Shown here piece by piece: positions 3,583-59,876 of a stretch of 64,000 nucleotides of DNA. The notes beneath the pieces are model-generated. The model made no database searches and was not told the origin of the DNA. It saw nothing but the letters and a program-made list of their open reading frames with translations. Location: the NCBI GenBank assembly GCA_028688325.1, contig JAQTYI010000001.1, forward strand, positions 31,088 to 95,087. The letters run 5' to 3'. The stretch is from Candidatus Portnoybacteria bacterium. GTDB taxonomy: Bacteria > Patescibacteriota > Minisyncoccia > Portnoybacterales > GWB1-42-6. The position numbers and the translations under genes were made by a program. Each line of letters opens with the position of its first letter. Position 1 is the first letter of the stretch.

Positions 3583-4323
3583 ATGGCCAAAGGCGTCATT
3601 TTAGAAATTCGCGCTGGAGCCGGCGGAGACGAAGCCGCGATTTTCGCGGCTAATCTTTTCCGGATGTATTCAAGATACGCCCAATCGCAAGGTTGGAGCT
3701 TTTTGGTTATAGACGAAAGCCGCAATTCCATCGGCGGGCTCAAAGAAATAACCATGGAAATAACGGGCGCGGAGTCCTATGAACAGCTGAAAAATGAAAG
3801 CGGCGTGCATCGCGTCCAGCGGGTTCCCAAAACCGAAAAGAACGGCCGGGTGCACACTTCCACCGCCACTGTCGCCATCCTGCCCAAAGTTGACGCGGCC
3901 GAGATTAGAATCAATCCGCAAGACCTGCAAATTGACGCGGTGCGCTCTTCGGGACCGGGCGGACAAAATGTCAACAAACGCTCCACTGCCGTGCGAATAG
4001 TGCACTTGCCCACCAACACGGTCGTTTTTTCGCAGACCGAGCGTTCGCAGGCGCAAAACAAAGAAATTGCCATGGAGATCTTGCGCGCCAAGGTCTACGA
4101 AAATATGCGCAACAGGGAAATGGCCAGCTTGAGCCAGGAACGAAGAGCGCAAATCGGCACAGCCGACAGGTCCGAGAAAATACGCACCTACAATTATCCG
4201 CAAAACCGCATCACGGACCACCGCATCGGCAAAAGCTGGCACGACCTGGAAACTATCATCGACGGAAAAATGGATCCGATAGTCAAGGCCTTCCGCATAA
4301 CCGCTGATAAAACGGATTTGTAA
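3583..4323 (+). CDS. prfA: Peptide chain release factor 1 lacking the N-terminal domain 1
   Basis: The sequence aligns to RF1 from about residue 108 onward. It has the PxT (PKT) anticodon-mimic motif of the RF1 type and a GGQ motif. An in-frame TAA lies two codons upstream of the ATG, so the ORF cannot extend 5'. Confidence 0.85.
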
Positions 4324-4463: not shown

Positions 4464-5066
4464 ATGGACCCAGCCCAACAGAATTTCTCCATGCCCGGGC
4501 CTCAGTTTGGCAACGGCTCAAATGGCGACTGGCTCAAGAGAAACTCGCACAGGATAGCTTACGCCCTGGTAGCCCTACTGCTTGCCACGGGCGGATTCTA
4601 TTTCTACCGGAGCTACCAAGACAGAACCGCTTTGCTTGAACCGGATTTAAAAGGAATCGTCGCTTTGCCGGCGCCTTCCAGCAGCTCCCCTGCTCAAGCA
4701 AACACGGAAAAGGCAAAAGGCGCCCCGAGCCCGGCTCCGCAAGCCAAGCAAGCCGGCCAAGACATCGTCGCCATCGCCGCCAAAGGCAACGGCGCGACCC
4801 ATCTGGCCCGACAGGCGCTTAAAGAATACCTGAAAGACAAACCGGAACTTGCTCAGAAACTGAAACCGGAGCACCGCATCTTTATCGAGGATTATCTGCA
4901 AAAACATTTGCCCAACAAGCCAAAAACCCTGCGCATCGGCCAGCAACTGACTTTTTCCGCCGATGATTTCCAGGCCGCGATAGATAAGGCCTTGGCCTTA
5001 AACGACAATCAGCTCAAAAATCTCAACAAATATGTTCCCCTCGTTCCTTCTTTAATGACAATCTGA
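4464..5066 (+). CDS. Hypothetical membrane-anchored protein (one predicted TM, Ala/Pro/Gln-rich linker)
   Basis: ORF with a hydrophobic segment (IAYALVALLLATGGFYFY) and no recognisable family. Ends in TGA. Confidence 0.55.
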   Translation: MDPAQQNFSMPGPQFGNGSNGDWLKRNSHRIAYALVALLLATGGFYFYRSYQDRTALLEPDLKGIVALPAPSSSSPAQANTEKAKGAPSPAPQAKQAGQDIVAIAAKGNGATHLARQALKEYLKDKPELAQKLKPEHRIFIEDYLQKHLPNKPKTLRIGQQLTFSADDFQAAIDKALALNDNQLKNLNKYVPLVPSLMTI

Positions 5067-5167
5067 AATAGCATTGCTTGCCGTCCCGAATTTATTTCGG
5101 GATCTCTGTGATTCTGAAACAAGTTCAGAATGACAAATTTTAGACAATATCAAGAAACAATCCAAAC

Positions 5168-5206
5168 TAAAAACCGTCCCGCAACTGCGGGACGGTTTTT
5201 AGTTGC
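5168..5206. terminator. Bidirectional intrinsic terminator between convergent genes
   Basis: aaaaaccgtcccgcaactgcgggacggttttt: a perfect 10-bp stem with A-run and T-run flanks. Confidence 0.7.
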
Positions 5207-6547: not shown

Positions 6548-7231
6548 TTATTTTACTTGTTCCGCTTCCGCTTCGGCGGCAGCGGCAGCAGCCGCTTTTT
6601 CTTCCTCGCCGACGACCTTAACTTCGGCTACCGCTTCAACCGGCTTGACTTCCAATTCTTCCATCTCTTTGTCGGAACGCGGCGGCGACACCAAGGCGAC
6701 CGTTTCTTCCAAGTCGGCCAGAATCTTAACGCTGCCAGACAGCGCCAAATCCTTGATGTGAATTTTATCCTCGAATGTCGCCAGCGAAGAAATATCAACT
6801 TTGATTTCCTTGGGCAAGTCCTGCGGCAGCGCTTCAACTTCAACTTCCTGCATGGCGCGGACTAAAACGCCGCCGTCCGCCTTCACCGCCGGCGATTCGC
6901 CGATAAACACGAAAGGAACCTTGGCTTTCATCTTTTCATCCATTTTCACCTCAAAAAAATCCGCGTGTATCACCTGGCCGTTCAAAATATCTCGTTCAAG
7001 ATCGTGGATAAAAACATTGCGCTTTTTGCCGTCCACAGACAGGGACAAAAGAGTGGTTTCGCCGGCTTCCTTGAAAATGCCTTCAAAATCCTTGGCATTA
7101 ACCGTAATAGATATCGGTTTTTTCCCGTGGCCGTATAAAACAGCCGGAATAAATCCGGTTTTTCTCAAAGCGCTCACTTTTTTGCCAAGGATAATCCTTG
7201 GGTCGGCTTTTAGTTCCAACATGAAATTCAA
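6548..7231 (-). CDS. rplY: 50S ribosomal protein L25/general stress protein Ctc
   Basis: N-terminal L25 fold motifs (RKTGFIPAVLYGHGK..ISI) and an acidic/Ala-rich C-terminal tail typical of the Ctc form. Confidence 0.85.
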   Translation of the reverse strand: MNFMLELKADPRIILGKKVSALRKTGFIPAVLYGHGKKPISITVNAKDFEGIFKEAGETTLLSLSVDGKKRNVFIHDLERDILNGQVIHADFFEVKMDEKMKAKVPFVFIGESPAVKADGGVLVRAMQEVEVEALPQDLPKEIKVDISSLATFEDKIHIKDLALSGSVKILADLEETVALVSPPRSDKEMEELEVKPVEAVAEVKVVGEEEKAAAAAAAEAEAEQVK

Positions 7232-7328
7232 TTAACAATTAACAATTAACAATGTATCACAATCTTGGGGTAAAAACAAGTACCGCTTTTAAAAAGCGGC
7301 CTTATTGCTTATTACCGGCTGTTTGCCG

Positions 7329-7538
7329 TCAATTAACTTTGATTATTTGCACAGGGCAAATTTCCGCGCTTTCCTTGGCGCAATCGGCCGCTTCGGCTTC
7401 CAGTTCCATATTCTCGCCGTTCATTTTGCCGCCAACAATGGAAGCCAGGCCGTCATCGGCCATAAAAAAATATTTCGGGCAAACTGCGGCGCAACTTCCG
7501 CAACCGATGCATTTTTGTCTTTCTTGGGTTATTTTCAT
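7329..7538 (-). CDS. Small 4Fe-4S ferredoxin
   Basis: CIGCGSCAAVCP (CxxCxxCxxxCP) plus a second C..CP pair; 69 aa. Confidence 0.7.
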   Translation of the reverse strand: MKITQERQKCIGCGSCAAVCPKYFFMADDGLASIVGGKMNGENMELEAEAADCAKESAEICPVQIIKVN

Positions 7539-7656
7539 TCAACCCGGCGCCAATACGCGAACTTTACGAATGCCACGAAATTATTGGCGGCATTCATGCA
7601 TCATTTGCACATTGGCGTCGCTTTATAAATTACAAATTAAATTCTATCACAAATCT

Positions 7657-8769
7657 TCATAAAAGGCGATTCTTGTTTTTATGCTCCGCCAGCGACTCAT
7701 TCACGAACTTCTTTATTTTATCCTTAAAAACTTCCTTGTCGAACCTCTCTGCCTGCTGGCTGATGTATCTGGCGTTAAAATCAACCGGATTGAATTTCTT
7801 GAGCGCGCCAATCAATGCTTCGGGCGTTTGCTCGTCAAAAAATATGCCGGTTTTGCCTTCCTCCACTATTTCCAGCGCCCCGCCGCCGCGGAATGCTATC
7901 ACGGGCCGGCCCGCGGCCATGGCCTCAACGGCGGAAATGCCGAAATCCTCTTCTTGCGGAAAAATGAACGCCCGGCAATGCGCAAAATAATTAGGCAATT
8001 CCTTTTCCGCCACCAAGCCCGTAAATTCAATGTTCGGACCGGCTATTTTCCGAAGATGCCTCCTGTCCGGCCCGTCGCCGATAATTTTCAGCGGCCAGCC
8101 CAATTTGTTAAAAGCGACGATGGCCAGGTCGATTTTTTTATACGGCAAAAATCTGGCCAGCATTAAAAAATAGTCGTTATTTTTTCCGCTCAAATAAAAT
8201 CGCCTGGTTTTAACCGGCGGACAAACAACCTCCGCTCGCCGGCCGTAATATTTTTTAATGCGCGAAGCGACAAATCGGGAATTGGCCAGATAAACATCGG
8301 GCCTGGCCGAAGCCGCTTCGTCCCAAAGACGCAGATAATTCAAGAAAGGCGGGATGAACCGCTTGATCAGATTTGGATAACTGAACTCGTTTATGTATTT
8401 TTGGCTGTCGTCCCAAACATACCTGGTTGGCGTATGGCAATAGCAGATATGCAGCGTCCCCGGCCGGGTGATGATGCCCTTGGCGAAACTGGCCGAGTCA
8501 GAAATCACCAGGTCGTATTTCGCTAAATCGAACTGTTCAACAGCTAAGGGCATCAGCATCAAAAACGGCCGGTGATGGGATTTGACCATCGGTATCTTTT
8601 GCAAAAATGATGTTTTTATCTTGCGCCCTTCAAAAGCCGACCCCGTGCGCCGCCTGTCATAGACCAAAGTAAAAATGGGCGCTTCCGGCCAAATTTCACA
8701 AAAGGCCTCCAGCACCCGCTCGGCTCCGCCGTATTGATTTAAATAGTCGTGCACCAGCGCAACACGCAT
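7657..8769 (-). CDS. Glycosyltransferase family 4 (GT-B fold)
   Basis: N-terminal HDYLNQYGGAERV and C-terminal GT4 motifs (E..G.P.I; ..FPQEEDFGISAVEAMAAGRPVIA). Confidence 0.8.
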   Translation of the reverse strand: MRVALVHDYLNQYGGAERVLEAFCEIWPEAPIFTLVYDRRRTGSAFEGRKIKTSFLQKIPMVKSHHRPFLMLMPLAVEQFDLAKYDLVISDSASFAKGIITRPGTLHICYCHTPTRYVWDDSQKYINEFSYPNLIKRFIPPFLNYLRLWDEAASARPDVYLANSRFVASRIKKYYGRRAEVVCPPVKTRRFYLSGKNNDYFLMLARFLPYKKIDLAIVAFNKLGWPLKIIGDGPDRRHLRKIAGPNIEFTGLVAEKELPNYFAHCRAFIFPQEEDFGISAVEAMAAGRPVIAFRGGGALEIVEEGKTGIFFDEQTPEALIGALKKFNPVDFNARYISQQAERFDKEVFKDKIKKFVNESLAEHKNKNRLL

Positions 8770-10505: not shown

Positions 10506-10948
10506 GAAGTCCAAGCAAATCGGGCAATCGCCCTTCGCTACGCGAAGGGAGGAAAGTCCGAACTCTCTCTCCCTGCCACGGCGGGGTTAAAAAAGGTAGC
10601 GGCTAACAGCCGTCCATCGTAAGATGCGAGGTGCGAACAGTGACGATTTTATCCGAAAGGATAAAATCGCCCTCCGAAGCTTTACGCGTAGGAGGGCGCA
10701 ATTTGACCATAAGAAATTGCAAAATTTCCAAAGTCAAAATGAAACGGCAAAATCCTTACCGGGTGCAAGATCAAACTATGAGACCGCAAGCTTGGTTCTC
10801 ATAAGACAAGTAGATCGCCCGAGCCCCGCAGCAATGCGGGGCCCAGACAGATGATTGCCCATTCGCTCGTTGCATCGCCCAGGACTTGTCCTGAGCGAGC
10901 GCAGCGAGTCGAAGGACAAAATTCGGCTTATAGATTTGTTTGGACAAT
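10506..10948 (+). ncRNA. rnpB: RNase P RNA (bacterial type A-like)
   Basis: 5' GAAGUCCAAGC (P1); P3 hairpin cccttcgc-ta-cgcgaaggg; P4 5' strand AGGAAAGUCCGAAC; P4 3' strand ACAAAAUUCGGCUUAUA near the 3' end; the closing strand gatttgtttggac pairs with gtccaagcaaatc. A terminator hairpin follows at 10949-10980. Confidence 0.75.
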
Positions 10949-15176: not shown

Positions 15177-16016
15177 TTATTTCTGGCAGGCGGGGCAAAA
15201 ATGCGCCGAGCGCCCTCCTATTTTTATCCTTGCCACCCTGCCTTTACATTTTACACAATTTTCCCCTTCTCTGCCATAAACTTTCAACTTTGCCAGAAAC
15301 CCTCCCTTGCGGCCGAAGGCGTCCAAATAGTTGTTGGCCGAGGTGCCTTTCGATCGTATGGCTTCGGGCAATATCTTTTTAATGCCTTGATAGATTTTTT
15401 TTATCTCTCCCTTCTTCAGCGACTGGTTGCGCCGCAAGGGATGAACGCCCGCAAAGAATAATATTTCATCCGAATAAATGTTGCCGATGCCGGCGATAGT
15501 TTTCGGGTCCATTAAAAATTGCTTGATTTTTGCTTTGGGCTTTTTGGCCAGCAACGCTTCAAAATCGGCTAAGGCGAAATCTTTTTCCAGGGGCTCCGGC
15601 CCCAAGCCCTCTTTTATGAAAAATTCACCGAGTTTATTCGTGTCTGCCAGCTTAATATACCCGAACTGGCGCAAGTCGTTGAATAACAAACGGGTTTTAT
15701 CGCTGAAATGAAAAACCAGATGCGTGTGCTTGCTTTCTGCCATTAACTGTTTATTGCTTGCCGTTGACTGATATACCATCTGCCCCGTCATTTTAAGGTG
15801 CGCCAAAAAACTCCAGCCATTATCCAGTTCAAAAACCAATAATTTAGCGCGCCGACCGACTTTTCTTATTTTTGCACCTTTAAGGGCGCGCTTAAATTGC
15901 GCCAGCGGCGTTTTAACCATTTTAGCCAAGCGCACTTCAACTTCTTTTATTTTTTTTCCGCCAATCAACTTGGAAAGCTGCCGGCTGATTGTTTCAACTT
16001 CGGGCAATTCTGGCAT
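15177..16016 (-). CDS. mutM: Formamidopyrimidine-DNA glycosylase
   Basis: The N-terminus after Met is PELPEVE, with Pro2 as the catalytic nucleophile; H2TH domain; C-terminal zinc finger CxxC..CxxC. The ORF-track start 30 nt upstream (MNIAEFLLPGM) lies inside a MITE. Confidence 0.85.
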   Translation of the reverse strand: MPELPEVETISRQLSKLIGGKKIKEVEVRLAKMVKTPLAQFKRALKGAKIRKVGRRAKLLVFELDNGWSFLAHLKMTGQMVYQSTASNKQLMAESKHTHLVFHFSDKTRLLFNDLRQFGYIKLADTNKLGEFFIKEGLGPEPLEKDFALADFEALLAKKPKAKIKQFLMDPKTIAGIGNIYSDEILFFAGVHPLRRNQSLKKGEIKKIYQGIKKILPEAIRSKGTSANNYLDAFGRKGGFLAKLKVYGREGENCVKCKGRVARIKIGGRSAHFCPACQK

Positions 16017-16150
16017 ACCAGGTAGTAGAAATTCGGCTATATTCATAAATCCAAACGGACTTAATTAGTTTTGCCAAATTCTATGGTTTTATCAAACTCT
16101 ACCAGTCAGCGATGATTCGGTTAAACCGCCGAATTTTCACTACCTGGTAT
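16014..16150. mobile_element. MITE copy 1a with 20-bp terminal inverted repeats (cataCCAGGTAGTAGAAATT ... AATTTTCACTACCTGGtat), flush against the mutM start codon
   Basis: Perfect TIRs read from the sequence; ATA flanks on both sides, consistent with a 3-bp target-site duplication; the internal sequence is about 80% identical to copy 1b at 48770. Confidence 0.65.
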
Positions 16151-16252
16151 AAATTCAAGCTTATATCTGTTGCTTATATTTTACTCGCCAAACGCCGTAA
16201 AGCCAAGGTATGGGCGAAATAAAAAAGGGAGCCGCATGGACTCCCCGACCGG

Positions 16253-35793: not shown

Positions 35794-35930
35794 CATATGC
35801 CAGGTAGTGAAAATTTGACGGGTTATTTTTTCCGTAAAAATCCTGCCGAATCTTTACAACCTCGGCAAATATGTATATATAATAAATTTGACTTATTAAT
35901 TATTTAGTCAAATTTCTACTACCTGGTATG
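35794..35930. mobile_element. MITE copy 1c (same 20-bp TIRs as 1a and 1b, divergent interior), flush against the start codon of the 35928 ORF
   Basis: catatgCCAGGTAGTGAAAATT ... AAATTTCTACTACCTGGtatg; TATG/ATG flanks consistent with a target-site duplication. Confidence 0.6.
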
Positions 35931-36533
35931 GCGGAAAATAAATTAGGCCTCAATTGGTCGGCCGCGGAAAAAGCCCTGGCCGAAGGAACTTTTTCTGGCT
36001 ACAAAATCGGCATACTGGAAACCGAAAAGATATTCGAGGAGTTGCTCAAGAATAAGCAGATCCCCGGCGGCTCAACCGAACGCAAAATAAAATACATTCA
36101 GCGCTTTTTAAGCTTGCCGGATAAGCTGGATTACAGCCAGCATGTTTATGAGCGCATCCTGCACGAGCCGCATTTTGAGATATCGCGCGAAGAAACAAAG
36201 CACATAATTTCCGGCTACTGGCAGGCCATGCTGGACATTGAAGAAGCGGTCGCCTCTTTGAGCATGCGGGAAAAAATTTCACTAAGAGCCCGATATATTT
36301 CAGCTATGGCGGTAAAAAATGCGCGCAATGTTGTTTTGGCGATTTTGGGCGTCTCCGCTGTTATCTGGTTCCTGGCCGAAACGAATATCGGCAAAAAGAT
36401 CGCCTCTGTAATTATTGCCGCCAATCATTTTTTTATTTTTAAATTTCTGTTCTGGACAATGGTCATATTGGCAATACTGCTGGTCATCGGCGGCGTACTG
36501 TATTTTTTGACAAGAAGGAAGAAGCGCTTTTAG
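35928..36533 (+). CDS. Hypothetical membrane protein (C-terminal TM helices)
   Basis: ORF whose ATG immediately follows the MITE TIR. Confidence 0.5.
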   Translation: MAENKLGLNWSAAEKALAEGTFSGYKIGILETEKIFEELLKNKQIPGGSTERKIKYIQRFLSLPDKLDYSQHVYERILHEPHFEISREETKHIISGYWQAMLDIEEAVASLSMREKISLRARYISAMAVKNARNVVLAILGVSAVIWFLAETNIGKKIASVIIAANHFFIFKFLFWTMVILAILLVIGGVLYFLTRRKKRF

Positions 36534-46204: not shown

Positions 46205-47224
46205 ATGTCAAAGCCAACTTATCCCCAAAAACCGATAATCGTCGTGGTCGGCCCCACGGCCTCGGGAAAATCCGACTTAGCAGTTAAGCTCGCTAAAAAA
46301 TTCAACGGCGAGGTTATTTCGGCCGATTCGCGCCAGGTTTACAAAGGCATGGATATCGGCACGGGAAAGGTGCCTCTCTCAAGTCCCCCCCTTGCGCAAA
46401 GGGGGGCCAGGGGGGTTAAACCTGCTGGCTACTACGGCGGCATTGCACATTATTTAATCGATGTGGCCTCGCCAAGCCGCCGATTTACCGCCGGGCAATA
46501 CAAAAAACTGGGGCAAGCAGCAATAAAAAAGATACAAGACAAAAACAAGATTCCCATCGTTTGCGGCGGCACCGGATTTTATATCCGCATGCTTGTGGAC
46601 GATCTGCAAGTTCCGGCCGTCAAGCCGGACTTAAAACTGCGCGCCAAATTGGAGAAAAAGACAACACAAGAACTATTCGCCGAGCTTAAAAAACTGGATC
46701 CGCGCCGCGCCGCGGAAATCGACCGCGCCAATCCCCGTCGGCTCGTTAGGGCGCTGGAGATAATTTATCTAACTGGCAAACCCGTGCCGCCGCCCCCCCC
46801 CTCTGTCATTCCGGGCTTGACCCGGAATCCAGAACCTGGATCCCGCATCAAGTGCGGGATGACAAATAATAATGTATTGTTCCTCGGCATCCGCCTCCCC
46901 CGACCCAAACTCGCCAAACGCATCAAAGCGCGCCTGGCTAAACGCCTTAAACAAGGAATGCTCGCCGAAGTCAAAAAACTCCGCGCGCAGGGCGTTTCCT
47001 GGAAACGACTGGACAGCTTCGGCCTGGAGTACCGCTGGCTGGCGAAATTTTTGCAAAACAAAATCTCCTATGAGGAGATGGTTGAGCGCCTGCAAAAAGA
47101 TATAGAACATTATGCCAAACGGCAGATGACCTGGTTTGGCCGCGATGAACGGATTCGCTGGATAAAAAATTCTGCGCAAGCGGAAAAATTTATGGCCAAA
47201 TTCTTGAAAAAATCAGCTCTCTAG
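46205..47224 (+). CDS. miaA: tRNA dimethylallyltransferase with two in-frame repeat-derived inserts
   Basis: P-loop GPTASGKS, and SADSRQVYKGMDIGTGK. Insert 1 at about 46384-46420 is LSSPPLAQRGARGVKPA (poly-G/C family). Insert 2 at about 46790-46866 is PPPPPSVIPGLTRNPEPGSRIKCGMTNN (gtcattcc...gggatgac family). Confidence 0.85.
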   Translation: MSKPTYPQKPIIVVVGPTASGKSDLAVKLAKKFNGEVISADSRQVYKGMDIGTGKVPLSSPPLAQRGARGVKPAGYYGGIAHYLIDVASPSRRFTAGQYKKLGQAAIKKIQDKNKIPIVCGGTGFYIRMLVDDLQVPAVKPDLKLRAKLEKKTTQELFAELKKLDPRRAAEIDRANPRRLVRALEIIYLTGKPVPPPPPSVIPGLTRNPEPGSRIKCGMTNNNVLFLGIRLPRPKLAKRIKARLAKRLKQGMLAEVKKLRAQGVSWKRLDSFGLEYRWLAKFLQNKISYEEMVERLQKDIEHYAKRQMTWFGRDERIRWIKNSAQAEKFMAKFLKKSAL

Positions 47225-48772
47225 TTTTTTCTTCAACATCCCAACCACCACCTGAGGATTGGCCTTGCCCTTCGTGGCGGCCATGACTTTGCCGACAAGA
47301 AACATCAGCGAGTTTTGCTTGCCTTTTTTAAAGTCCGCCACCGGGCCGGGGTTGGCGCTTAAAACTTCTTCGATTGCCAGATTCAGCTCTTCCTCATCGC
47401 TCACCTGGCCCAAGTCCTTTTCGGCAATGACATGCGAGGGATCCGCTCCCGTGGCGAACATTTCCGCCAGCACCGTTTGCGCGCCGGAAGATGAAACCAC
47501 GCCTTGCGCTGTCAGTTTGATGAACTCGGCGAATTTGGCCGGTGTGATTTTTACGGCGGAAAAATCATTGCCCGACTGATAAACCAGCCGCTGGAGCTCC
47601 GTAATCAAATAGTTCACCGCCAGTTTTGCCGATTTGGCATAGTCAATTTTCGGCTCGGCCATTTTAGCCAAAGCCGCCAATTCGCTGGCCGTTTTTTCAA
47701 AATAATTTCCCAGATCGAAATTAACGACTAAAACATCGATATCTCCGGCCGACAAACCGTATTCTTTGGCGAATCTCTCCCTTTTTTGCGCCGGCAATTC
47801 CGGAAGCTCTTTTTTCAATTCCTCGCTCAAGATCACCAACCCCTTTAGCGGCGGCAGATCCGGCTCGGGAAAATAGCGGTAATCATGCGCCTCTTCTTTC
47901 GCGCGCTGACTGAATGTCTCGCCTGTTGCATCATCCCAACCGCGCGTTTCCTGAATTATCTTTTCGCCCGCTTCCAACGCCTCGGTTTGCCTTTTTATCT
48001 CATAGTCAATCGCCCGCTCAACTACTCGAAAAGAGTTTAGATTTTTTATCTCTACCTTCGTCCCTAATTTCTTTAACCCTCCTGCTTCCCCCTTTACAAG
48101 GGGGGCAGATACGGGTTTATCTCCCCCCTTACGCAAAAGGGGGGTTGGGGGGTTAAAGTCCACGGGCCGTATACTAATATTGACTTCGCACCTCATCTGC
48201 CCTCGCTCCATATCCGCATCGGAAATTCCCAAATATCTAAAAATTAATTGCAACTCCTGGCAAAATTTGCGTGCCTGAGCGCCGGATTTTATATCGGGCT
48301 CTGTTACCAATTCCATCAACGGCACGCCGGCGCGGTTTAAATCCACAAGCGAATAGTCAGCTCCCTTGGGATGCGTTAATTTGCCGGTGTCCTCCTCAAG
48401 ATGTATCCGGGTTATCCTGACGCGGGCTTTTTCATCGTTTTCTCCGATATCCAAATACCCGCCTTCAATTAGCGGCTGGTCGTATTGTGAGATCTGGTAA
48501 CCCTTAGGCAAATCGGGGTAAAAGTAGTTCTTGCGGTCGAACTTGGATGTGTCGCCGATCTGGCCTCCCAGGGCCAATCCCGCCTTTAGAACCATATGCA
48601 CCGCTTCCTCGTTGATGACAGGCAAGGTTCCGGGCTGGCCGGAGCAGACGGGGCAGATATCAACATTGGGCTCGGTTTCAAGGCCCAGCCCGTTGGGACA
48701 AGAACAAAACATCTTGCTCTTGGTTTTCAGCTCGGCGTGGATTTCCAGGCCTATAGTCGGTTCGTATTTCAT
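47213..48772 (-). CDS. gatB: Asp-tRNA(Asn)/Glu-tRNA(Gln) amidotransferase subunit B with an in-frame insert of about 25 aa
   Basis: Starts MKYEPTIGLEIHAEL and has GatB/YqeY domains. The insert DFNPPTPLLRKGGDKPVSAPLVKGEAGGLK is encoded by the element at 48073-48156. The track start (MNITEFLLPGM) lies inside MITE 1b. Confidence 0.9.
   Translation of the reverse strand: MKYEPTIGLEIHAELKTKSKMFCSCPNGLGLETEPNVDICPVCSGQPGTLPVINEEAVHMVLKAGLALGGQIGDTSKFDRKNYFYPDLPKGYQISQYDQPLIEGGYLDIGENDEKARVRITRIHLEEDTGKLTHPKGADYSLVDLNRAGVPLMELVTEPDIKSGAQARKFCQELQLIFRYLGISDADMERGQMRCEVNISIRPVDFNPPTPLLRKGGDKPVSAPLVKGEAGGLKKLGTKVEIKNLNSFRVVERAIDYEIKRQTEALEAGEKIIQETRGWDDATGETFSQRAKEEAHDYRYFPEPDLPPLKGLVILSEELKKELPELPAQKRERFAKEYGLSAGDIDVLVVNFDLGNYFEKTASELAALAKMAEPKIDYAKSAKLAVNYLITELQRLVYQSGNDFSAVKITPAKFAEFIKLTAQGVVSSSGAQTVLAEMFATGADPSHVIAEKDLGQVSDEEELNLAIEEVLSANPGPVADFKKGKQNSLMFLVGKVMAATKGKANPQVVVGMLKKKLES
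48073..48156. repeat. Poly-G/poly-C palindromic element inserted in frame in gatB
   Basis: The reverse complement is nearly identical to the miaB copy (ttaaccccccaaccccccttttgcgtaaggggggagataaacccgtatctgccccccttgtaaagggggaagcaggagggttaa). Confidence 0.7.
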
Positions 48773-48903
48773 ACCAGGTAGTAGAAATTCGGTTATATTC
48801 ATAAATCCATACGGATTTTTAAATTGCCGAATTCTATAGTTTTATCAAATTTTGCCAATTAGTGATAGTTAACTAAACTGCCGAATTTTCACTACCTGGC
48901 ATA
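48770..48903. mobile_element. MITE copy 1b with 20-bp TIRs, flush against the gatB start codon
   Basis: cataCCAGGTAGTAGAAATT ... AATTTTCACTACCTGGcat; the interior is about 80% identical to copy 1a; ATA flanks. Confidence 0.65.
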
Positions 48904-59436: not shown

Positions 59437-59512
59437 CGGGCCGTACGGGATTCGAACCCGTGGTCTTCTCCGTGACAGGGAGACGCGTTAAGCCTGGCTA
59501 CGCTAACGGCCC
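59437..59512 (-). tRNA. tRNA-Asp (GTC)
   Basis: Manual fold: acceptor GGGCCGT/ACGGCCC, D arm GCGTAGCCAGGC, anticodon loop CTGTCAC, T arm GGTTCGAATCC. CCA is not encoded. Confidence 0.85.
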
Positions 59513-59537
59513 ATAAACATTTTCACGATAAAACTCG

Positions 59538-59611
59538 TAGCTGCGAGTGGACTCGAACCACTGACCTGGCGCTTATGAAGCGCCCGCTCTAACCGACTGA
59601 GCTACGCAGCC
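59538..59611 (-). tRNA. Elongator-type tRNA-Met (CAT), or Ile2 if the C34 is lysidinylated
   Basis: Acceptor GGCTGCG/CGCAGCT with G1·U72, D arm GCTCAGTCGGTTAGAGC, anticodon loop TTCATAA, T arm AGTGGTTCGAGTCCACT, pyrimidine11:purine24. Confidence 0.85.
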
Positions 59612-59805
59612 CAACTACGCTCCGATTTTCATCGGAGCTTCGATGGGCAAGTGATGTAATAAATAAACTTCTTGCCCTTCCGAAGCTCAAATGCAATTTG
59701 GGCGAAGGAGGGAGCTACGCAGCCATGCACCCTCTCTATAAAAAATAATAACGCCTGAACTAAATTCTGTCACCATTTAATTTACGGCGCTAATATTTTA
59801 ATATG

Positions 59806-59876
59806 TTGCGGGGCCCGGAATTGCACCGGGGTCTGGGGCTTATGAGACCCCCGAGATACTTCTTCTCTACCCCGCG
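59806..59876 (-). tRNA. Initiator-like tRNA-Met (CAT) with atypical D and T loops
   Basis: C1xA72 mismatch, A11:U24, and an acceptor/anticodon arm very similar to E. coli tRNA-fMet (CGCGGGG..CTCATAA..CCCCGCAA). The D loop AGAAGTA lacks G18G19 and the T loop is TGCAATT (G55). Confidence 0.6.

Follow-up and report, generated by a model that had tools for sequence, protein, structure and literature searches.

The 64,000 nucleotides analyzed here (the window) come from a Candidatus Portnoybacteria bacterium (GenBank assembly GCA_028688325.1, contig JAQTYI010000001.1, positions 31,088 to 95,087 of the forward strand) and contain three copies of a short repeat with terminal inverted repeats (TIRs), each placed directly before the start codon of a gene: mutM, gatB, and a gene for a hypothetical protein of 201 amino acids (aa). 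The reading that we favor, and think probable, is that these repeats are non-autonomous MITEs (miniature inverted-repeat transposable elements) of a family specific to Patescibacteria (Candidate Phyla Radiation, CPR), that the full-length form of the family carries a UPF0213/Ssn-like GIY-YIG gene, and that insertion takes place at start codons with duplication of the target TATG. The short form has the structural features by which a MITE is recognized, namely TIRs at its ends, a target-site duplication (TSD) of fixed length, presence/absence polymorphism among relatives, and a small, non-coding, multicopy body.

Copy 1 (130 bp, 16018-16147, minus strand) lies at the start of mutM (Fpg), with its gene-proximal TIR at 16018-16037 ('TAGAAATT' type) and its distal TIR at 16128-16147 ('GTGAAAATT' type); the gene-side TSD at 16014-16017 (minus strand) is TATG and holds the mutM start codon (16016-16014), and the distal TSD occupies 16148-16151 (minus strand). 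Copy 2 (127 bp, 35800-35926, plus strand) lies upstream of the hypothetical gene (35928-36533, plus strand), with the distal TIR at 35800-35819 and the gene-proximal TIR at 35907-35926 (inner part of the TIRs TTTGAC/GTCAAA), and is flanked on the plus strand by an upstream TATG (35796-35799) and a gene-side TATG (35927-35930), the latter holding the start codon. Copy 3 (126 bp, 48774-48899, minus strand) lies at the start of gatB, with TIRs at 48774-48793 (gene-proximal) and 48880-48899 (distal), a gene-side TATG at 48770-48773 (minus strand) that holds the gatB start codon (48772-48770), and a distal TATG at 48900-48903 (minus strand), 11 nt past the folD stop codon. The 4-bp flanks are thus TATG/TATG at gatB and the hypothetical gene, and TATA/TATG at mutM. 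The window has six matches to a 16-nt motif from the ends, where shuffled sequence would give 0.16. Copies 1 and 3 are similar over their full length and form one subfamily, and copy 2, with an unrelated interior and only the ends in common, belongs to another. All three are oriented alike with respect to the downstream gene, the 'GTGAAAATT' end being distal and the 'TCTAC' end being followed by T and then by the ATG.

A previous sequence-only reading of the window had placed the three copies correctly at these genes and had described perfect 20-bp TIRs, direct repeats of 3-4 bp (ATA or ATG) as the TSD, and an element end lying exactly at the host ATG. The length of 20 bp holds, the TSD is real, and the copies do adjoin the true start codons; the TIRs, however, are mismatched between the two ends at positions 10-11, the repeat is a 4-bp TATG with the start codon inside it, and the element ends 1 nt before the ATG in all three copies. 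That the adjoining ATG is the true start follows from the N-termini MPELPEVE of MutM and MKYEPTIGLEIH of GatB, which match the conserved N-termini of homologues, and the coding sequences are accordingly 15177-16016 (minus strand, 279 aa, with the N-terminus common to MutM homologues) for mutM and 47213-48772 (minus strand, 519 aa) for gatB. The same reading had argued from the catalytic residue that MutM must start here, with which the shared MPELPEVE agrees, and it had attached weight to a second in-frame ATG ten codons upstream that gives the extension MNI(A/T)EFLLPGM. EFLLPG is simply the translated TIR, and this in-frame ATG, present at mutM and gatB, occurs in 7 of 76 family members, an accident of the subfamily. 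The NCBI annotation (P0241) has a MutM open reading frame (ORF) of 289 aa (15177-16046, minus strand) that starts with MNIAEFLLPGM and whose first 10 residues are the end of the element; this annotation is an artefact of the element. The same N-terminal artefact is found in other MutM and GatB entries (P0247, P0020), and in MutM the false N-terminus would block the catalytic Pro2.

In close relatives the site at mutM and the site at gatB lack the element and have one TATG only, and the window copies are therefore real insertions. The gatB site is empty, with a single (T)ATG, in L115, whose GatB is 96% identical, and in L116 and L117, the other two relatives, with GatB identities of 83% and 78%; the junction reads gagTAAaattaaaaTATGaaatacgaaccg in L117 and gagTAGaatatagaTATG-element-TATGaaatacgaaccg in the window. 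The mutM site is empty in the relative L199 (MutM 86% identical, upstream flank ~95% identical to that of the window), where the junction reads ...agcttgaattTATGccggaattgccc, compared with ...agcttgaattTATA-element-TATGccagaattgccc in the window. Empty in L199 and filled in the window, the site gives a clean pair with a duplication of 4 bp, in which the distal TSD of copy 1 now reads TATA (G>A) and L199 has its single TATG. Both start codons have been hit elsewhere as well: gatB is occupied by an independent copy of the same subfamily in a relative with 71% identical GatB, mutM is occupied by an independent, diverged copy of 109 bp in a relative with 82% identical MutM, and a third MutM homologue with the MNIAEFLLPGM extension represents a further hit at the mutM start. 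As a separate observation, the folD-gatB spacer of L115 is ~310 bp long and not ~10 bp, and its G/C-rich inverted repeats at 1320-1430 (cctcctcccctcagacgaggggagggttgggtggggtg ... caccaccccctctcaatctccccctcaactgagggggagagg) look like another inserted repeat.

The TIR of the short form is exactly 20 bp long, with 18 of 20 positions pairing and no pairing from position 21. At positions 10-11 one end has GA and the other AG in 119 of 120 matches, so that the two ends are distinguishable and the stem contains a 2-nt internal loop. Positions 17-20 vary with compensatory changes (96-99% Watson-Crick), and because the G-T intermediates show no strand bias (4 vs 7), the constraint on the stem looks to be exerted at the level of DNA and not of RNA. 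The interior is AT-rich and essentially unalignable across genomes, conservation being limited to the outer 20 nt of each end; a subterminal repeat of the TIR near the gene-proximal end is weakly enriched, in some subfamilies only. Each window copy is predicted to fold as RNA into one long hairpin (-44 to -49 kcal/mol), and the same stem as a predicted hairpin of single-stranded DNA (ssDNA) has about -23 kcal/mol (hairpin z-scores -4.6 to -6.5 overall, about -6 for RNA). The UAUG/UAUG flanks add 4 bp to the predicted RNA stem, which would place the AUG of the gene at its foot. The short ORF that begins at the upstream ATG of the MITEs has a median length of ~21 codons and always crosses the 5' arm of the hairpin; it has 37 codons in copy 2 (ending at 35907, within the element) and nine codons in copy 3 (MPGSENSAV, spanning the 5' arm). 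The length of this ORF and its coupling distance were considered as conserved features of the MITEs and rejected, as their distribution is broad and resembles that of a control frame.

This anatomy bears on two alternative explanations. In the first, the repeat would be a conserved, non-mobile cis-regulatory leader or riboswitch-like RNA, which would suit its constant position relative to the ATG and its strong predicted structure. The empty and filled sites with a TSD in relatives already refute this, and the host genes are mutually unrelated, the interior is unconserved with only the 20-bp ends co-varying and no strand bias, and no Rfam family matched at the gathering threshold (a scan of the whole window returned the RNase P RNA and three tRNAs only, and nothing at the copies); we therefore reject a structured cis-regulatory RNA and give this explanation practically no probability. 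The second takes up the functional idea of the sequence-only reading, a promoter or a leaderless start, and adds a regulatory RNA hairpin: genes would keep the element upstream for one of these functions, much as with Correia elements. Co-transcription of the copies would give very stable predicted hairpins that include the AUG, and the interior of the gatB copy (48831-48858, minus strand) contains a promoter-like, sense-oriented TTGGCA-16-TAGAAT match at 59 nt before the ATG. This match, however, is missing from the mutM copy and is not above shuffle expectation, and per-position profiles and consensus scans found no conserved promoter, Shine-Dalgarno sequence, -10 box or terminator in the element, promoter-like matches being no commoner than in shuffles and none being common to the copies. 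Since only the 20-nt ends are conserved and the promoter scans are inconsistent, a promoter or leaderless start supplied by the element is not supported; the compensatory TIR changes without RNA strand bias and the close relatives that express the same genes without the element also speak against this explanation, which we regard as improbable.

To see the family as a whole, we scanned species-representative genomes with a pattern made of both ends (near-consensus ends, interior of 80-110 nt only) and found at least 113 loci, all in metagenome-assembled genomes of Patescibacteria/CPR; the first 80 loci span at least 40 assemblies, and the hosts include Parcubacteria, Portnoy-, Yanofsky-, Lipton-, Doudna-, and Berkelbacteria. 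The unique short copies number 118 (113-142 bp), at least 17 of them in one genome (LBYG01), and neither the short nor the full-length form was present in the 2.9 million viral contigs searched. Identical 4-bp flanks are found in 76 of the 118 copies (TATG/TATG in 51), and flanks identical over 5 bp in only 3. The duplicated target has 4 bp and is overwhelmingly TATG, with the host start codon as its ATG. By site, 90 copies abut an ATG, 15 lie in or next to GAGG, and 13 lie elsewhere, which puts ~89% at translation starts and bears out the non-random tie to start codons that had been proposed from three copies. In the GAGG class, a subfamily in which the Shine-Dalgarno GAGG is itself the target, this sequence lies 4-9 nt upstream of the ATG. 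The orientation of the copies relative to the gene at ATG sites is strongly biased (76:12, p = 1.6e-12).

Several loci show more complex arrangements. Tandem elements sharing one TATG (...CCTGG TATG CCAGG...) occur at L047 (~3966-4115), L133 (1468-1832), L149 (1474-1800), and L158 (~1460-1790), and tandem copies are to be expected if each insertion regenerates a usable target on both sides. At L078 (5949-6207) a copy is split within its TIR by another, unrelated element that has inverted repeats of its own (GGCGCTGTTCG...CGAACAGCGCC), and 9 bp (ACTTTTCAC) look to be duplicated there. TIR pairs of no more than 60-90 bp (L062, 4401-4467, and ~13 others in L119-L198) are either mini-derivatives or deletion products.

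We compared the occupied sites with all TATG/CATA sites in reconstructed element-free loci. Of 71 occupied sites, 48 coincided with the initial ATG of an ORF that has 100 aa or more, compared with 6% of all TATG sites (p = 5e-41) and 18% of non-genic TATG sites (p = 9e-24), and relative to other non-genic TATG sites the occupied ones were enriched ~4-fold. Because the genes were modelled by crude ORF calling, these start-association figures are underestimates. There is no extended target consensus, the context being that of ordinary T-ATG gene starts except for a mild excess of C at +4/+5. A Shine-Dalgarno sequence is present at only 4 of 88 ATG-class sites, and a TAnnnT box lies 6-9 nt upstream at ~35% of sites (exactly 6 nt upstream in all gatB orthologues), many sites being without one. 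As for the window itself, its genome rarely uses Shine-Dalgarno sequences (an SD-like 4-mer upstream of 7 of 54 long ORFs), and the sequence before most starts is AT-rich, a TAnAAT-like box being frequent a few nt upstream; initiation in this organism seems to be mostly Shine-Dalgarno-independent or leaderless.

An explanation by selection only would have the elements insert at any TATG and survive at the start codons of compact genomes, with no start-specific targeting. Insertions that regenerate the ATG through the TSD would be unique in doing the ORF no harm, occupied sites do have the context of ordinary T-ATG gene starts, and GAGG is rare outside Shine-Dalgarno positions in AT-rich spacers; we take this explanation as a serious possibility that falls short of an even chance. 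Insertion between the promoter or initiation region and the ATG, however, should be among the more harmful intergenic insertions, and selection alone does not readily give the ~4-fold excess over other non-genic TATG sites or the independent hits on the same mutM and gatB start codons in several lineages. Because of this excess and these repeated hits, the data suggest an additional targeting component beyond TATG specificity and survival. In the reading that we favor, the concentration at start codons would arise from TATG specificity and from the fact that none but gene-sparing insertions survive, and the extra component may be ssDNA exposed at the promoters of leaderless genes, a view that the TAnnnT boxes at some of the sites would suit, or, alternatively, a preference for TATGCC, a sequence that mimics the left junction of the element itself.

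The full-length form came to light among TIR pairs of odd size, as a unit of 306 bp (L063, 5221-5526) that encloses an ORF of 86 aa, a GIY-YIG catalytic domain (PF01541, E = 4.6e-16) covering nearly the whole protein. A protein search of metagenome contigs gave 80 loci with relatives of this nuclease at 60-100% identity, and the TIR is present on both sides, within a few tens of nt of the ORF, in 66 of the 80, and on one side only in 9 more. The 59 unique full-length units share one architecture (305-330 bp, ORF of 85-93 aa): the left TIR is followed after ~7 nt by the nuclease ATG (at position 28 of the element in 28 units), and at the other side the stop codon TA[GA] of the nuclease ORF shares a base with the right TIR, the first one of that TIR, so that the host ATG stands 20 nt past the stop. 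The flanks are TATG/TATG in 29 of the 59 units, an upstream ATG is present in 43, and in 37 a host ORF of at least 60 codons begins at the adjoining ATG. Reading in frame from the upstream ATG explains why many database entries for the nuclease have 98-103 aa. TIR variants (CCGGG.., TCAGG.., CCAGGA.., CCTAG..) change jointly at both ends, keeping the asymmetry at positions 10-11. Residues of the GIY-YIG active-site type are invariant (Y17, G19, R27, N32, and E63), and among solved structures those of the UPF0213 proteins BH0048 and EF2693 come closest, with SLX1 next.

TIR-pair sizes are bimodal (~130 bp and ~310 bp), and a short copy lies within 3 kb in 10 of the 80 nuclease loci; the full-length element is the likely autonomous partner of the MITEs. 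Both forms integrate in a fixed orientation relative to the non-palindromic TATG and are consequently co-directional with the host gene. The Shine-Dalgarno-class MITEs appear to be opposite, but in one full-length copy of that subfamily (L155) the AG-type end lies 5' of the ORF, and these MITEs are therefore probably co-directional as well. The TATG duplication, the orientation bias, the Shine-Dalgarno-inserted class and the full-length element had all escaped the sequence-only reading. Distant GIY-YIG genes (32-44% identical) lie between different inverted repeats of their own, 17-18 bp long (TTGCCCCGTTAGAGATA; ATCTTTCGCTAAAGCTAC), at L096 (6175-6458), where the unit abuts the thyA start codon, at L084 (7515-7829), where it lies after a tRNA gene with its CCA end and before a GAGGAGG, and at L029 (~4830-5190), which suggests a wider superfamily of TIR-GIY-YIG mini-elements.

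These units have to be set against the possibility that the repeats are ordinary MITEs moved in trans by an unseen conventional transposase (e.g., of the DDE type) with a preference for TATG, the GIY-YIG gene being a passenger or homing hitch-hiker. A TSD of fixed length together with TIRs is the classical mark of DDE elements, selfish homing genes are known among the GIY-YIG enzymes, and the MITE interiors are unrelated to the nuclease element. On the other side, ~1.1 Mb of CPR sequence around the copies contained no kb-size element, no TIR pair >450 bp and no transposase-linked lone TIR, and the only ORF found between these TIRs is the GIY-YIG gene; an identity with DDE insertion sequences that make a 4-bp TSD (IS5, IS701, IS1380 type) was rejected, as no DDE transposase gene lies between the TIRs in the examined loci. 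The bracketing of the close nuclease homologues in a fixed, overlapping geometry, the joint change of the TIR variants and the occurrence of other GIY-YIG genes between inverted repeats of their own also tell against a passenger, and we consider this explanation rather unlikely.

The nearest described system is Ssn. Ssn proteins are small single-domain GIY-YIG ssDNA nucleases whose genes lie between NTS/SRM hairpin repeats, the enzyme has been demonstrated to recognize a DNA stem and to cut a few nt outside it, and the authors remarked that an insertion sequence has an identical architecture, with its gene between repeats (Chenal et al. 2025, PMC11893778). The CPR family is alike in having a single-domain GIY-YIG gene (~90-150 aa in the comparison) between copies of a repeat that is also scattered genome-wide, and at 85-93 aa its proteins fall within the class of single-domain GIY-YIG proteins <150 aa. 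The Ssn repeats, however, are self-contained hairpins on each side of the gene, whereas the CPR family has two 20-bp half-sites that pair across it; the published SRM motif (HGTCWY...RNCYNB) occurs in none of the 118 MITEs and in none of the 59 full-length elements; and a 4-bp TSD, empty sites, MITE derivatives and start-codon insertion are not reported for Ssn. The CPR family thus resembles Ssn in kind, its best solved relatives being UPF0213 proteins. Among the papers that could be searched, none described a TIR element that encodes a GIY-YIG protein, MITEs of CPR bacteria or insertion specific to start codons, and the Ssn paper came nearest.

Because Ssn enzymes recognize a stem, cut outside it and are encoded between their own repeats, we propose by analogy that the nuclease mobilizes both forms. 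It would recognize the TIR-TIR stem in ssDNA, including the 2-nt mismatch, and cut at the TATG foot, with the nuclease gene or the MITE interior as the loop and the invariant mismatch marking the strand. The TSD would regenerate the start codon, leaving the host ORF intact on the gene side and making the insertion tolerable. Effects on host expression may follow: the upstream copy of the ATG would retain the host initiation context and load ribosomes onto the element, where they would enter the nuclease ORF (in the full-length form, in frame in about half) or a short ORF (in the MITE), and this upstream translation would melt the hairpin that otherwise buries the AUG of the gene. In the full-length form the nuclease would thereby be expressed, with re-initiation at the host ATG past the stop.

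Several points weigh against the proposal as a whole. To our knowledge, GIY-YIG enzymes are not known as transposases, and the assignment of the 88-aa protein as the mobilizing enzyme, made by analogy, concerns a protein without a separate DNA-binding domain. A 4-bp TSD classically results from staggered double-strand cuts by DDE transposases and not from ssDNA nucleases. The MITE interiors share only the TIRs with the nuclease element (the idea that they are deletion remnants of the nuclease gene was rejected for want of any sequence similarity), and no full-length copy lies within the 64-kb window. The upstream ATG is missing in 12 of 88 copies and the upstream TSD reads TATA in the mutM copy, so that melting by an upstream ORF cannot be universal, and in only 23 of the 43 full-length units with an upstream ATG is it in frame and open into the nuclease ORF. 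To these must be added the narrow census pattern and the crude gene models.

Other known systems share single features with the CPR family. Correia elements of Neisseria are likewise repeats of 100-150 bp with TIRs and a short TSD, present in many copies beside genes, co-transcribed and hairpin-forming; they duplicate TA, have a 26-bp TIR, contain IHF sites as well as promoters, and show no tie to start codons. The CPR family, in contrast, duplicates TATG, is biased in orientation, has a nuclease-encoding partner, and differs in TIR sequence and length and in the absence of a conserved interior motif, and an identity with Correia elements was therefore rejected. IS200/IS605 and REP/RAYT elements are moved by HUH tyrosine transposases by 'peel and paste', with subterminal hairpins and no TSD. 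They are similar in very small size, DNA hairpin recognition, short targets, strict orientation and non-autonomous palindromic derivatives; an identity with IS200/IS605 was rejected, since the CPR family has end-to-end TIRs, a 4-bp TSD and a GIY-YIG enzyme. GIY-YIG homing endonucleases (I-TevI, Seg proteins) have a separate DNA-binding domain and home to the cognate allele by homologous repair; they have the catalytic domain and the selfish spread within genomes in common with the CPR element, which differs in being a bare catalytic domain with TIRs and a TSD at the starts of many unrelated genes. The translational bypass elements (byps) of yeast mitochondria and the insert of T4 gene 60 sit within coding sequences, where ribosomes hop over them, and the likeness is one of analogy only (a short mobile insert bounded by identical codons in the translated or initiating part of a gene, the gene staying functional); the CPR insert lies upstream of the ORF, and nothing points to hopping. 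GIY-YIG ORFs in non-intron insertions of CPR rRNA genes have also been described (PMC11270868), and these insertions may be related to the CPR element.

Elsewhere in the window, an RNase P RNA of bacterial class A (109 bits) and three clustered tRNA genes lie at 10512-10946 (plus strand) and 59437-59876 (minus strand). The divergent spacer at 7222-7252, between ORFs 6548-7222 (minus strand) and 7252-7662 (plus strand), contains three tandem TTAATTG repeats (caattaacaattaacaattaaca), which could be operator-like.

Whether the family amounts to a new class of prokaryotic transposon is a proposition that we find evenly balanced: a GIY-YIG transposase of ~88 aa in an element of ~310 bp would be the smallest autonomous mobile element known, with directional insertion at start codons or Shine-Dalgarno sequences that borrows host signals, and with MITE offspring at the 5' ends of CPR genes. 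Such an element would be far smaller than the insertion sequences known to us and built on a fold not known for transposition, and it would link the Ssn hairpin nucleases to real mobility, as seen in the TSD, empty sites and MITE derivatives. Because the elements corrupt CPR gene calls, many nuclease ORFs being called from the host ATG, they matter for annotation, and a small protein that recognizes a defined DNA stem and TATG could become a tool. For the biology of these bacteria, insertion at a start codon with its regeneration is an unusual strategy in which the host gene is left intact and its expression signals are captured, and it leads one to ask how translation begins at a start codon that lies at the foot of a predicted -45 kcal/mol hairpin in bacteria that seem to work mostly without Shine-Dalgarno sequences.

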